NCBI GenBank assembly: GCA_003661125.1
Contig: QMVO01000038.1
Span: 1-10,479, forward strand
Direction of reading: 5' to 3'
From: Methanosarcinales archaeon
Lineage (GTDB): Archaea > Halobacteriota > Syntropharchaeia > Alkanophagales > Methanospirareceae
DNA length: 10,479 nt
Positions 5,291 through 9,229 of the stretch are shown one piece after another. The position numbers and the translations under genes are program-made. The notes beneath the pieces are model-generated. The model made no database searches, was not told where the DNA came from, and saw only the letters and a program-made list of their open reading frames with translations. Each line of letters begins with the position of its first letter. The stretch's first letter is position 1.

Positions 5291-5605
5291 ATGGATAATA
5301 GAGAAAAGAAACTGTTTTTAGAAGAATTGGATAAGCGTGCACGGCGATGGCAAAGAAAACGCGAAGATGCATTAAGCCGACTTGAACAACCAAAAAACGA
5401 ATACGAAAAGAAGAGAGCTGAAATTGATTTGTCTGTTGCAGAGGCTGCATTAAAACGCATTGAAAAACGTAAAGAAGAATTGGTAACACCAAAAGAGGAA
5501 AAGAGCGAAGAGAAGAAAGAAGAAAAGAAAAGAGAAGAAAAAAAGCATAAAAAGGAAGCAAAAAGACAATGGGAAGCGACAAAAAACATAAAAGAGAATG
5601 ATTAA
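5291..5605 (+). CDS. Lys/Glu-rich low-complexity coiled-coil protein, 104 aa
   Basis: GAGGT lies 8 nt before ATG 5291. The product is almost entirely K/E/R (EKRKEELVTPKEEKSEEKKEEKKREEKKHKKEAKRQWE). The stop overlaps the next start (ATGATTAA at 5598-5605). Confidence 0.45.
   Translation: MDNREKKLFLEELDKRARRWQRKREDALSRLEQPKNEYEKKRAEIDLSVAEAALKRIEKRKEELVTPKEEKSEEKKEEKKREEKKHKKEAKRQWEATKNIKEND
5491..5566. repeat. purine-rich (GAA/AAG)-like low-complexity tract inside the K/E-rich gene
   Basis: Direct inspection shows long runs of A/G with few C/T. This explains the spurious antisense ORFs 5205-5589 predicted in this region. Confidence 0.6.
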
Positions 5606-6029
5606 ATCTATCTTAGATGGAATCAAGCATATTCTCCAGAATGATGCAGACACAAAAGACGTGATCAAATCCTATTATTATCATCTTCCCGTATCAGGTG
5701 CACGCGACCCTTGCTGCATCCTCGGATATAATATCTCGTTTAATATAGACAAAGAACGTTCTTATCTCAATAGTTCAATACCTGGACGATTCTGGTCTGC
5801 TTCTGTTTCTATTTTACTTTTAGGTAGAGTTTATGAACGTACTCCTTCGCGGTTTGAAGCAATGATAGAAATTCTGGATAAATTACAAGGCGATGCATAT
5901 GAAGCGCTCACGAATGACAAAACACTAAACGGTACAGTCCTCAAGAGTCAACCTGTTTCTATACACAATATCTTCCTCGATGAATACTATGGATATGAGA
6001 TATCTATTGAGATCACAAAATCTGATTAA
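5598..6029 (+). CDS. putative neck / tail-completion protein (position-based), 143 aa
   Basis: The ORF is translationally coupled to the upstream gene. It is the last gene of the + strand neck block before the reverse-strand cassette. I recognise no family. Confidence 0.45.
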   Translation: MIKSILDGIKHILQNDADTKDVIKSYYYHLPVSGARDPCCILGYNISFNIDKERSYLNSSIPGRFWSASVSILLLGRVYERTPSRFEAMIEILDKLQGDAYEALTNDKTLNGTVLKSQPVSIHNIFLDEYYGYEISIEITKSD

Positions 6030-6385
6030 AAGTAGTCTTCAAGTTTCTTATTAATAGCTTTCATTTCTTTTTTATTTTTTATCTCTTCTCTCCACCGCTT
6101 ATTTAGTTTTTCCAATGCACCCGGCATCACGTTTGGCCAGAACATACCGAAAAATGCGAACCCCAAACAGATGAAAATAGTAGCTGGGTCTAAGCCCGAA
6201 TAAATAGCAGTAGGGACATTTGAATACTTTGGGTATTCTCCTCTGCCTTTGAAACTAAGAACCCTCTCATTATACTCAATGTTGATGCCTGATGCTTCCG
6301 CGAGCTTAATTATTTCTTCGTAATTGCCATGCCATGCTTGGAATGTAAGTTCGATCATACGGTCTTCAATCATTTTTCCTATCAT
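6026..6385 (-). CDS. hypothetical 119-aa protein with central hydrophobic segment (ATIFICLGFAFFGMFW), co-oriented and downstream of the RNA ligase gene
   Basis: From the ORF track. Its start context on the reverse strand is AGGAAAAATGATTGAAG. It shares a TTAA overlapping-stop arrangement with the convergent + strand gene at 6026-6029. Confidence 0.45.
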   Translation of the reverse strand: MIGKMIEDRMIELTFQAWHGNYEEIIKLAEASGINIEYNERVLSFKGRGEYPKYSNVPTAIYSGLDPATIFICLGFAFFGMFWPNVMPGALEKLNKRWREEIKNKKEMKAINKKLEDYF

Positions 6386-6477
6386 TTTTTACATTGCCTT
6401 TCAATTCTGCTAAACGACTTTTCCAGAAGTATTCACGAATTTTCATATCGTCTTTATCTACATCTATTTGTCCTTTA

Positions 6478-7608
6478 TCATTTATTTTCATTTTTTATGG
6501 CAAACTCTTCTGACAAATAACTATATATCTTACTTGCTAATTTTTTATCATATTCTTGTGCAAAATACCGCATACAAGTTCTTTTATCGTGAACAATATC
6601 TAAATTTTCTTTCAAATACTTCTCTTTTATCTCCGCTTTAAATCTTTTCTCAAAAGCTACTTCATTCATTATCTTGCGAATCCTCTCTTCTTGTTGTACT
6701 ATATCACTTTCTTGGAACTCTTCTAAAAGCAACGATTTAATCAAATCAAAAGAAGGATTGTCTGTTTCTTCATAGGCGTTTATCACTGTTATTAATATTG
6801 AATGTTTTGGTATTCTATTGTCTTTCCAGTGCACATCCAAAACCAAATCAGGCTTCGCTTTATATTGTATTGCACTTTCTGAGATGACATACCAAACAGT
6901 GCCTTCTATACCTCTTACGATTCCCTCCGTATCCTGAAATATGTTTTCATTAAGCCATTTTCTTAGTGCTTCGTATTCTTCAATGAATTCTATTTTAGAT
7001 GTAAAATTCTTTAAAAGCTTTGCAGTTCTCAATCCATTCAATTTGAGTTCTGTGGGAGGGACTATTTTCTTAGGGAATACACCGAATAGCGCAGCGCAGT
7101 CAAGTAAAGTATCATACTCTACTAATATCTTATTTCTTTTTCCGTATAGTTCAAAGCTGATGTTACATTTATTCTTTAATATTATCTCAGGTATCTCGGG
7201 ATATGTGTCAAGCATTTCGCTCCACAAACTCCGGAAGTTACCAAATCGGGATTCCTCTAACGTTGGTCGTAGTCGTGTTTTATAACTCACAAATTCATTG
7301 CCTTCTGCATCAAAATAAGTATATCCTAAGATATTTGTCCCATCTAACTTTTCATATACTTCTATCCTGTCTACATTTTCAAAATGAATATAATTACCGT
7401 CCCTATCAAAAGGATATACCATCTTTGGTGTAGCCCATACATATTGAGGACATTCTTTATCATTTACATGGGTGATGTAAAGCATCCCATAGGTTGAATG
7501 TCCATCTCGTCTGATATATCCCTTTAATGTATTATTATTAAAGGTATCTCTCACTTCAAACTCTTCTACATTCTTGGAACTGATATTAAAAGGATATTCA
7601 GTCATCAT
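6478..7608 (-). CDS. ATP-dependent RNA ligase-like covalent nucleotidyltransferase (Rnl2/Rnl3-like), 376 aa, with ~50-aa N-terminal extension and ~120-aa helical C-terminal domain
   Basis: Nucleotidyltransferase motifs occur in the canonical order and spacing. Motif I is VYEKLDGTN with K87 (T4 Rnl2 has EKIHGTN; Rnl3 is the KxDGxN type). Motif III is ISFELYGK with E153, 66 aa after motif I. Motif IV is TEGIVRG with E228. Motif V is QYKAK with K250/K252, 22 aa after motif IV. The reverse-strand SD GAGGAG lies 5 nt before ATGATG. Confidence 0.6.
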   Translation of the reverse strand: MMTEYPFNISSKNVEEFEVRDTFNNNTLKGYIRRDGHSTYGMLYITHVNDKECPQYVWATPKMVYPFDRDGNYIHFENVDRIEVYEKLDGTNILGYTYFDAEGNEFVSYKTRLRPTLEESRFGNFRSLWSEMLDTYPEIPEIILKNKCNISFELYGKRNKILVEYDTLLDCAALFGVFPKKIVPPTELKLNGLRTAKLLKNFTSKIEFIEEYEALRKWLNENIFQDTEGIVRGIEGTVWYVISESAIQYKAKPDLVLDVHWKDNRIPKHSILITVINAYEETDNPSFDLIKSLLLEEFQESDIVQQEERIRKIMNEVAFEKRFKAEIKEKYLKENLDIVHDKRTCMRYFAQEYDKKLASKIYSYLSEEFAIKNENK

Positions 7609-7706
7609 TTCTCCTCATTCACTGCCTTGTTCACCACTAATATTTAGTCAGTTAGCATAAAAAGGTTTTCGGTCTTCTGGTTAGAACCATAAGTTCTTAC
7701 TATAAA

Positions 7707-7739
7707 ATTTGTAAACGTCCCCTTTTTATTTCTATTCCG
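7707..7739 (+). promoter_or_regulatory. copy C of conserved motif (ATTTGTAAACGTCCCCTTTTTATTTCTATTCCG); candidate promoter for the major tail gene, in the divergent intergenic region shared with the RNA ligase gene
   Basis: The TATA-like CTTTTTATTT lies ~50 nt upstream of ATG 7780. A leadered transcript would carry the SD AAGGAGGAAG. The 21 nt core is identical to copy B. Confidence 0.4.
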
Positions 7740-7779
7740 ATAAACTTCAACCGAAGAAAAAAGGAGGAAGAAGCAAAAA

Positions 7780-8694
7780 ATGGCAAAAATGCCGATTTCT
7801 GGTGCGAAGGCGATAGAATACGTCGCCGAGGATTCAATAGGGAGTGGTACTTACGGAGTAACACCAGACAATCCAACGATGAAATGGCTCGGATTAGTAA
7901 ATCCATTCACTCCACACATAGCCAAAGGGTACGAAGAAGTACGTTATCTCGGTGCTTACGATGCAACAGATATGTTGCAAAAAATGCGAAATATGAAAGT
8001 GGATGGAGAACTAACCGCATCACTGACTTACAAACCGCAGGATTGGGATTTCATGCAGTATATCACAGGCAGCACTACCGGTCTATCAGACTCTGTCGAT
8101 TCATTAAGCATCGCGCAGTACACAGATGAGAAATGGATATTGTATAAGGGATGTATGCTCACGAGATGGGAACTGACCTTGCCAAAAGAAGGAATTGCAA
8201 CCGTAGATGTGGATATGACAATAGGAGATGTAGCAGACCCGACTGGCACTGATTTCATAGGTACGGGCTCGCATGCATCAGAGAGTACAGATGACCCGTT
8301 CCTGTGGGAAGACATAACAGGACTTAAGATGGATTCTAATGATCCGCCTACTACAGAGATTGCGCATTCTGTCGGCGATCTGACACTCAGCATAACAAAT
8401 GAAGTCGAATTACCGAAAGATATTAGCTCAACGAAATGGACGCGAGCTGAAGGTGCAGTCGTAAAGAAGAGGGACATATCGGTCTCGATGGAATTGACCT
8501 GGGTTGATATTGATTCCTTTTTCACATTAGTGAAAAACGGCACGAAACAAAATTTGCAGTTCACACTCGGTGGTAAGACATTTACTATTAAGGGACTCAT
8601 TCCGCCTGAATACAATCCAGAGATTACACCCGATAACTTTATTGGTGAGACGGTTACATTCCTAATGGACCAGCCAGACTTGACAATAGCGTAG
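7780..8694 (+). CDS. putative major tail protein, 304 aa
   Basis: A strong SD (AAGGAGG) is present. The ORF is located directly upstream of the G/GT chaperone pair and the tape measure gene, the canonical siphovirus order MTP-G-GT-TMP. Its Thr/Asp/Gly-rich composition suggests a beta-rich protein. Confidence 0.5.
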   Translation: MAKMPISGAKAIEYVAEDSIGSGTYGVTPDNPTMKWLGLVNPFTPHIAKGYEEVRYLGAYDATDMLQKMRNMKVDGELTASLTYKPQDWDFMQYITGSTTGLSDSVDSLSIAQYTDEKWILYKGCMLTRWELTLPKEGIATVDVDMTIGDVADPTGTDFIGTGSHASESTDDPFLWEDITGLKMDSNDPPTTEIAHSVGDLTLSITNEVELPKDISSTKWTRAEGAVVKKRDISVSMELTWVDIDSFFTLVKNGTKQNLQFTLGGKTFTIKGLIPPEYNPEITPDNFIGETVTFLMDQPDLTIA

Positions 8695-8806
8695 CTTTAT
8701 ATATACCTAGTGTATAGCGGATTATATATGAGTGCCAGGGTGGGGCATAGGTTAAATTCTATGCGCAGGAAGGGAAAGGCACCATAAAACAAGGAGCAAG
8801 AACAAA

Positions 8807-9229
8807 ATGAGAACGAAAAAGATAGGTAATTACGAGTTTAAATTCTATTCTCGTGATGAAATTACATACGGTGCGATGCAGCGTGTCAAACGATTTTTGA
8901 TGACACGCGTGCTCGCAATGATGAAAGGCGCGGGCAAAGAAGAAGAAATATTCGAGCGGATGTTTGAGAACGCCGATAAACTCGCGGAATATATTCAGCT
9001 TGTACAGGAAGAAGAAGAAACAAATGATATCATTGCTATCATGCTCGTGACGAACAAGGACTACGATGAAATTGCAGATTTACCGATTTCAGTCATTGAA
9101 GCACTCAAGGAAGAAGTAAAAACAGAGGCGGGCGGTGATATTGCGGGTTTTTTGAATGGCTTAGGTATCAGTATCAGCTCGTATCTCGAAACGATGTTCA
9201 CGGAAGAGAAGGGCAAGAAAAAGATGTAA
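8807..9229 (+). CDS. tail assembly chaperone (gpG-like), 140 aa, acidic
   Basis: SD AAGGAG is present. The position between the major tail and tape measure genes is canonical. The ORF ends in a Lys run (KGKKKM) containing an A-rich slippery tract, and the -1 frame is open for 84 more codons. Confidence 0.6.
   Translation: MRTKKIGNYEFKFYSRDEITYGAMQRVKRFLMTRVLAMMKGAGKEEEIFERMFENADKLAEYIQLVQEEEETNDIIAIMLVTNKDYDEIADLPISVIEALKEEVKTEAGGDIAGFLNGLGISISSYLETMFTEEKGKKKM

Follow-up and report, generated by a model that had tools for sequence, protein, structure and literature searches.

A candidate RNA ligase family carried in a variable cargo slot of the structural operon of a probably archaeal tailed virus

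We analyzed a 10,479-bp NCBI contig (the window, meaning the whole stretch of DNA) that has been binned into a metagenome-assembled genome (MAG) named 'Methanosarcinales archaeon'. The window contains the head-neck-tail operon of a tailed virus, with all genes that flank positions 6026-7608 on the + strand in the list of open reading frames (ORFs). At 6026-7608 is a reverse-strand block encoding a protein of 376 amino acids (aa), very probably an RNA ligase-type enzyme, and a small membrane protein of 119 aa. An earlier note on this DNA had described reverse-strand ORFs of these two sizes within a + strand structural operon, and we found them as described. Both proteins are annotated as hypothetical in GenBank (RLG34235.1, RLG34234.1). 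The ORFs are not due to chance, because database searches gave 308 homologues for the 376-aa protein (lowest E-value 1e-189) and 10 for the 119-aa protein. The block and its borders are as follows; the slot is the junction that holds the block, and L136, L137 and L138 are syntenic modules described below.

5598..6029, + strand: 143-aa conserved neck/connector-region gene (p143), left border of the slot, with homologues directly upstream of the slot in L136, L137 and L138
6026..6385, - strand: 119-aa small membrane protein (115 aa from an alternative start at 6373), from the ORF list
6366..6491, - strand: highly charged ORF of 41 aa, possibly a gene and called as such on contigs L001 and L002
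6478..7608, - strand: predicted 376-aa ATP-dependent RNA ligase-type enzyme, from the ORF list, motifs and structural model
7609..7779, no strand: AT-rich intergenic region of 171 bp separating the divergent ligase and tail-tube starts, from the sequence
7780..8694, + strand: tail tube protein gene, right border of the slot (Pfam Phage_tube_2, E 1.2e-15)

The tail tube protein also matches PHROG 290 (E 1.4e-21), and the + strand genes include one for an HK97/Linocin-type capsid protein (E 2.4e-16). Both GC skew and AT skew are inverted across about 5750-7750, matching the strand switch. The 41-aa ORF was called by gene callers on L001, an overlapping metagenome contig. It shares 14 nt with the 3' end of the ligase gene and also overlaps the beginning of the 119-aa gene. 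As read from the sequence, the block may thus comprise three translationally coupled genes. The 41-aa ORF had no homologue elsewhere among the loci examined and no Pfam match, and it is uncertain whether it is a genuine gene.

The 143-aa gene on the + strand and the 119-aa gene on the - strand converge, and their stop codons overlap within a TTAA palindrome (6026-6029), leaving these two genes without an intergenic terminator. Either transcription of the + strand operon runs through the cassette antisense, or a promoter in 7609-7779 drives the tail genes. The cassette promoter presumably also lies within 7609..7779, a region with a GC content of 33.9%, and the ligase gene would presumably be transcribed from its own promoter. 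A Shine-Dalgarno-like element, GAGGAG, is located 3 nt upstream of the ligase ATG (about 6-8 nt from the center of the element). A scan of the cassette for sigma-70 sites (using the sigma-70 consensus) and terminators was at chance level.

We found that the catalytic motifs of the 376-aa protein are conserved. We scored invariance in an alignment of 50 homologues that are 37-76% identical to it. The invariant residues are K87, D89 and G90 in motif I (KLDGTN, 87-92), E153 and G156 in motif III (FELYG, 152-156), E235 and G236 in motif IV (EGTVWY, 235-240), and K250 and K252 in motif V (KAK, 250-252). K110 and R112 are likewise invariant. Motifs III, IV and V follow motif I in the canonical order of nucleotidyltransferases. 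Three of the four ordered motifs named in the earlier note (KLDGTN, FELYG and KAK) are therefore sound, but conservation does not extend to its fourth, EGIV (228-231); motif IV lies instead at E235-G236.

Profile comparison points to the same residues. We built an Rnl1 profile from eight T4-type Rnl1 proteins of annotated phage genomes and compared it with the family profile using hhalign. The two profiles matched with 87.7% probability (E 3.4e-6). The alignment pairs K87, D89 and G90 with K99, D101 and G102 of T4 Rnl1, and E235-G236, K250 and K252 with E227-G228, K240 and K242. The similarity arises from the nucleotidyltransferase (NTase) core. In Pfam, 8 of the 50 homologues individually match RNA_ligase (PF09414; best E 7.7e-6).

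Several homologues of 720-760 aa contain inteins with LAGLIDADG homing endonucleases. The inteins are inserted exactly at motif I (after about residue 89; homologues P0165 and P0226) and just after motif V (after about residue 253; homologues P0135 and P0154). Inteins typically sit in catalytic sites, and their positions thus agree with the motif assignment. A 618-aa homologue, P0251, has a weak match to a Hint module near its N-terminus, so a third insertion is possible. Homologues of about 500 aa had no fused healing domains, as judged with Pfam.

The predicted structure is that of an adenylyltransferase. An AlphaFold2 model made from the family alignment (predicted local distance difference test score, pLDDT, 90.2; predicted template modeling score, pTM, 0.85) contains the NTase fold, and its Foldseek matches among viral models are mostly annotated RNA ligases. 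In the model, an N-terminal four-strand beta module (about residues 14-57) precedes the NTase core (about residues 80-252), in which K87 is the predicted AMP acceptor. A single, all-helical C-terminal domain (C-domain; residues 253-376) follows motif V. The extra N- and C-terminal domains expected in the earlier note are thus both seen in the predicted model. The oligonucleotide/oligosaccharide-binding (OB) domain is absent from the ligase, and its structural scores are twice as high for RNA ligases as for DNA ligases. For these two reasons, sealing of RNA is much likelier than sealing of DNA.

For the modules on either side of the core, hhalign does not support a relationship to those of T4 Rnl1; it gave 0.7% for the C-domain against the Rnl1 profile. 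A by-eye match of the N-terminal module (F17/D21, Y40-G41 and K62/Y65 with T4 F19/D23, R54-G55 and K75/F77) was dropped because hhalign gives no support for it. A search of PDB sequences with the C-domain profile returned nothing meaningful.

The nucleotidyltransferase assignment stands after the profile searches and structure prediction that had been proposed to check it, and nothing that would overturn it was found. Based on these results we are confident, at the level of enzyme class, that the 376-aa protein is an RNA ligase-type covalent nucleotidyltransferase.

We compared the protein with the described RNA ligase families, Rnl1 to Rnl6, each defined by the domains that accompany its NTase core (PMC6379707). 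PF09511 (Rnl1) had no match at E <= 0.1 in the window protein or the 50 homologues. The NTase core of T4 RNA ligase 1 (Rnl1, PF09511; gp63/RnlA) is distantly related to that of the window ligase, but the Rnl1-type C-terminal helical domain, which confers tRNA specificity in Rnl1, was not found. TIGR01209 and PF18330 are the models that define Rnl3 (PMC12153264). In contrast to archaeal Rnl3 (MthRnl, 5d1o; Pyrococcus abyssi Pab1020), the window ligase matches neither, and its C-terminal region does not retrieve Rnl3. The Rnl3/HARP set is also narrower; the family of the window ligase is spread far wider and includes many other bacterial phyla. NCBIfam gave no match at E <= 0.1 for the window ligase, and Pfam gave only a weak PF09414 match for it and for the 50 homologues.

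T4 Rnl2 (PF09414, RNA_ligase) and Rnl5 (NgrRnl) are among the closest known systems. The window ligase scores below the gathering score of PF09414, and the pairing of an Rnl2-type C-domain with a PF09414 match was not found in it. It also differs from the ligase domain of fungal Trl1 (Rnl6; 6n0t, 9r3w): the C-domains are unrelated, the isolated window C-domain retrieves no Trl1 chain, and the kinase/CPD fusions of Trl1 are not present. An RxxR motif after motif V in Rnl6 has been proposed to bind the 2'-PO4 (PMC6379707). This Rnl6 marker has no conserved copy after motif V in the window protein (PDLVLDVHWKDNRIPKHS) or in the consensus of the 50 homologues. As far as the models allow us to judge, the window ligase fits no named Rnl family and its C-domain matches no known ligase C-domain. 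By the criterion that defines Rnl6, its family would be a separate clade within the Rnl1/Rnl3/Rnl6 supergroup.

We found that the position of the ligase gene is a variable cargo slot. Homologues of the tail tube protein led us to the three syntenic structural modules, and the gene order p140 - p143 - [slot] - tail tube - p140b is the same in the window, L136, L137 and L138. The contents of the slot differ:

Window, 6029-7780: 1.75-kb reverse-strand block
L136, 977-1547: 570 bp with no ORF > 62 aa (empty); tube 60% identical
L137, 5486-6368: one 149-aa gene, + strand; tube 57% identical
L138, 8466-10001: three genes, on both strands; tube 47% identical

One of the L138 slot genes has weak helix-turn-helix-like matches and another has a weak RelB/PHD-antitoxin-like match. 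The cassette differs from the window in GC content (33.9% vs 40.5%), and the ligase gene (32.9%) differs from the genes for the capsid (46.5%) and tube (44.4%) proteins. The adjacent p104 and p143 genes are also GC-poor (35-37%). We found no direct or inverted repeats bounding the cassette. These findings bear out the moron-like position described in the earlier note: the slot is empty or holds other cargo in syntenic relatives, the block is on the opposite strand, and its GC content deviates. The p143/tail-tube junction is a variable cargo slot in this virus group. Three tail tube homologues, P0276 (512 aa), P0277 (509 aa) and P0281 (446 aa; L137, 6368-7708), are 140-210 aa longer than the 304-aa window protein and presumably carry a C-terminal decoration domain.

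The second protein of the block appears to be unconnected with the ligase. In the 119-aa protein, a soluble and conserved N-terminal stretch of about 60 aa is followed by one predicted transmembrane helix (at about residues 66-88) and a basic tail, NKRWREE; its homologues share all three. The Kyte-Doolittle maximum over 19 residues is 1.66, at residues 69-87, which agrees with the hydrophobic segment reported before. The 10 homologues, counted besides its own cluster, are 61-74% identical. In three viral-looking contigs a homologue (about 70% identity) is solitary, with no ligase within reach. Conversely, no homologue of the 119-aa protein is encoded at any of about 120 loci that carry the ligase. 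The two genes occur independently of each other, and the suggestion that they form a module fails; the two-gene 'cassette' is a local juxtaposition in a cargo hot-spot. On the basis of these sequence comparisons, the 119-aa protein is most simply taken as an independent passenger and not as a partner of the ligase. As a guess, it could be a small moron product anchored in the membrane, with a part in, for example, superinfection exclusion or lysis timing.

The ligase family is large. A profile search of 1.84 billion representative proteins retrieved 733 clusters (50% identity) with E <= 1e-3, 350 of them with E <= 1e-30. Relatives are encoded in 136 stretches of bacterial and archaeal species genomes, including closed 4-Mb chromosomes of Binatia, Nitrospirales and Thermodesulfobacteriota and many contigs from Planctomycetota, Verrucomicrobiota and Deltaproteobacteria-type MAGs. 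The chromosomal neighbors in the bacterial loci examined are housekeeping genes (AMP-binding enzyme, DUF1302/DUF1329, ABC permease, GlgB). The gene is also carried by 34 IMG/VR contigs of up to 257 kb; tblastn of the ligase against 50,697 phage genomes found nothing. The family is unannotated: its members are called 'hypothetical protein' wherever they are named and have no significant match in Pfam, NCBIfam, PHROGs or PADLOC, and an earlier published listing is possible.

Some viral homologues are near genes related to RNA metabolism. There are tRNA arrays near the homologue in L107, L121 and L109/L131, RlaP and a dual-specificity phosphatase (DSPc) in L004, and a calcineurin-type phosphoesterase in 6 loci. 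In L107, a gene for a CCA-adding enzyme (PolyA_pol head, HD domain; 9139-10533) is directly downstream of the ligase gene (8001-9083), and eleven tRNA genes follow it within 8 kb. An ORF of L130 (14205-14975) is related to this CCA-adding enzyme. Other viral neighbors include DNA methylases, uracil-DNA glycosylase (UDG) and clamp-loader-like AAA+ ATPases.

The three closest relatives with readable context (64-65% identity) are in a different setting. There the ligase gene heads an operon with a full-length archaeal-type MCM helicase, a PCNA-like protein, DUF5131 and YopX, and only the ligase is in common with the window. Since contexts differ and only the ligase is shared, the gene moves alone among widely differing genomes and modules. 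Shortly upstream of these three ligases, on the same strand, is a conserved gene of 301-311 aa without a Pfam match (L085, 2338-3243; L086, 860-1765; L089, 1394-2329), and its product is unrelated to every window protein.

The host of the tailed virus is probably an archaeon. This rests on the MAG binning and on the presence of MCM and PCNA in viruses with the closest ligase homologues. The capsid and tube proteins had no relatives in the phage collection or by the IMG/VR search made for host assignment.

The left part of the window contains three further features. ARAGORN found a tRNA-Gln gene (anticodon UUG; 568-642, + strand) upstream of the structural operon, and it was the only hit of the Rfam scan for non-coding RNAs (tRNA model, 59.9 bits, E 3.1e-11). 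A virus-borne tRNA near an RNA ligase may indicate conflict over tRNA or simply codon-usage compensation. A 54-aa ORF (698-862, + strand) of a HicB-like antitoxin family (PF15919 E 1.2e-9, UPF0150) may be a viral antitoxin against a host HicA-type RNase toxin. It is just before a gene for a 508-aa protein (901-2427, + strand) that begins with a ChaB domain (E 4.4e-20) and contains an extended charged region resembling a coiled coil. The ChaB-domain gene is upstream of the capsid gene at the expected scaffold/protease-scaffold position, where this domain is unusual.

The ligase would be expected to use the three-step chemistry of covalent nucleotidyltransferases. K87 of motif I would attack ATP to form a covalent lysyl-AMP, assisted by E153, E235, K250 and K252. 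The AMP would then pass to the 5'-phosphate end of an RNA, and the 3'-OH end would attack, sealing the break. The substrate would most likely be selected by the family-specific helical C-domain, as appended domains do in other RNA ligases. During infection, the virus would use the ligase to reseal broken RNAs, plausibly tRNAs. T4 Rnl1 acting with Pnkp against PrrC is a precedent. Jumbo phages, in which RNA ligases occur together with RlaP, provide another (PMC7824862). The tRNA-Gln on the contig, the HicB-like antitoxin gene and the sporadic tRNA-related neighbors of other homologues give soft support to a tRNA role. Drawn by analogy, a role in repair or counter-defence seems to us plausible without being quite probable. 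For the combined picture, in which an RNA ligase-type enzyme carried in a variable slot would reseal RNAs for repair or counter-defence, we have a slight preference.

Several observations weigh against this interpretation. The enzyme class is predicted from sequence comparison and structural modeling, and the role from precedent. The match of PF09414 to the 376-aa protein is below threshold (18.6 bits with a cutoff of 27; E 0.0022). Searches of PHROGs, NCBIfam, PADLOC and PDB sequences (phmmer and profile) gave no match. No neighbor was shared beyond one lineage when 80 bacterial and archaeal MAG loci were clustered, and in 40 viral loci the ligase was the sole common gene; we therefore rejected a conserved operon. 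T4-type tRNA repair has a healing enzyme (Pnkp) co-encoded with Rnl1; a scan of ORFs in the 10.5-kb window, which covers an incomplete viral genome, detected no end-healing kinase or phosphatase. Genomic context thus does not tie the enzyme to RNA repair. The tRNA-related neighbors are sporadic and have no enrichment baseline, and the replication-module setting of the closest homologues could point to a function on nucleic acids different from tRNA repair.

This last setting is the main reason to consider a role in replication, with the ligase sealing nicks in DNA or RNA-DNA hybrids, for example in Okazaki-fragment maturation. The MCM- and PCNA-containing operons would fit such a role, as would the clamp-loader-like AAA+ protein, UDG and DNA methylases near other viral homologues, and a separate DNA ligase was not seen in the fragments with the closest relatives. 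The missing OB domain and the structural scores argue for RNA as the substrate, and we judge a replication role to be improbable. Slightly less improbable, in our view, is an Rnl3-like enzyme that circularizes or processes RNA and thereby stabilizes or modifies small RNAs of the virus or host. Archaeal Rnl3 circularizes C/D-box small RNAs (sRNAs) and other single-stranded RNAs; the window ligase has none of the matches that define Rnl3.

Two other explanations start from the location of the gene. The ligase, the 41-aa ORF and the 119-aa protein could be one module, such as a membrane-tethered RNA-repair or counter-defence system. Their shared strand and the overlaps between stop and start codons suggest that they are co-transcribed and translationally coupled. 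The separate distribution of the 119-aa homologues and the lack of any homologue of the 41-aa ORF speak against a module, which we consider very improbable. Least credible of all is a structural or assembly role like the attachment of tail fibers by T4 Rnl1 (gp63). Such a role would explain the neck/tail location inside a morphogenesis operon, and T4 Rnl1, with its distantly related NTase core, is annotated 'RNA ligase and tail fiber protein attachment catalyst'. However, the contents of the slot vary, and the slot of L136, with a 60% identical tube protein, is empty, the ligase gene is on the opposite strand with lower GC, and the closest homologues are in replication modules, with hundreds more in bacterial chromosomes. 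In addition, the invariant catalytic residues and the inteins in catalytic motifs argue for selection on enzymatic activity.

Within the repair and counter-defence interpretation, a more specific version can be formulated. The combination of an Rnl1-like N-terminal sub-domain, an NTase core and a unique helical C-domain might act as a stand-alone, one-gene antidote to the PIN/VapC class of tRNases. Metal-dependent tRNases of this type are thought to leave 3'-OH/5'-PO4 ends, and the ligase may be specialized in resealing such breaks, because the family is nearly always found without end-healing enzymes. The C-domain is possibly a GatB/YqeY-like tRNA-binding module; its YqeY-like matches are at noise level, a further point against a tRNA role. 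We regard this version as unlikely.

RNA ligases of viruses are already known, including in archaeal tailed viruses, where HGTV-1 has one of Rnl2 type (PMC8651126). What appears to be new here is an unannotated family with a C-domain that, in the models, is unlike those of Rnl1 to Rnl6, and with a wide stand-alone occurrence. RNA ligase families share a catalytic core and are sorted by the domains added to it, which determine the RNA that is repaired. Because the C-domain matches no known ligase domain, the family probably has its own substrate preference. One characterized member would assign a function to hundreds of genes and could provide molecular biology with a new ligase, possibly a thermostable one. 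It could also add an RNA-repair or counter-defence tool to the sparse knowledge of conflicts between archaeal viruses and their hosts.

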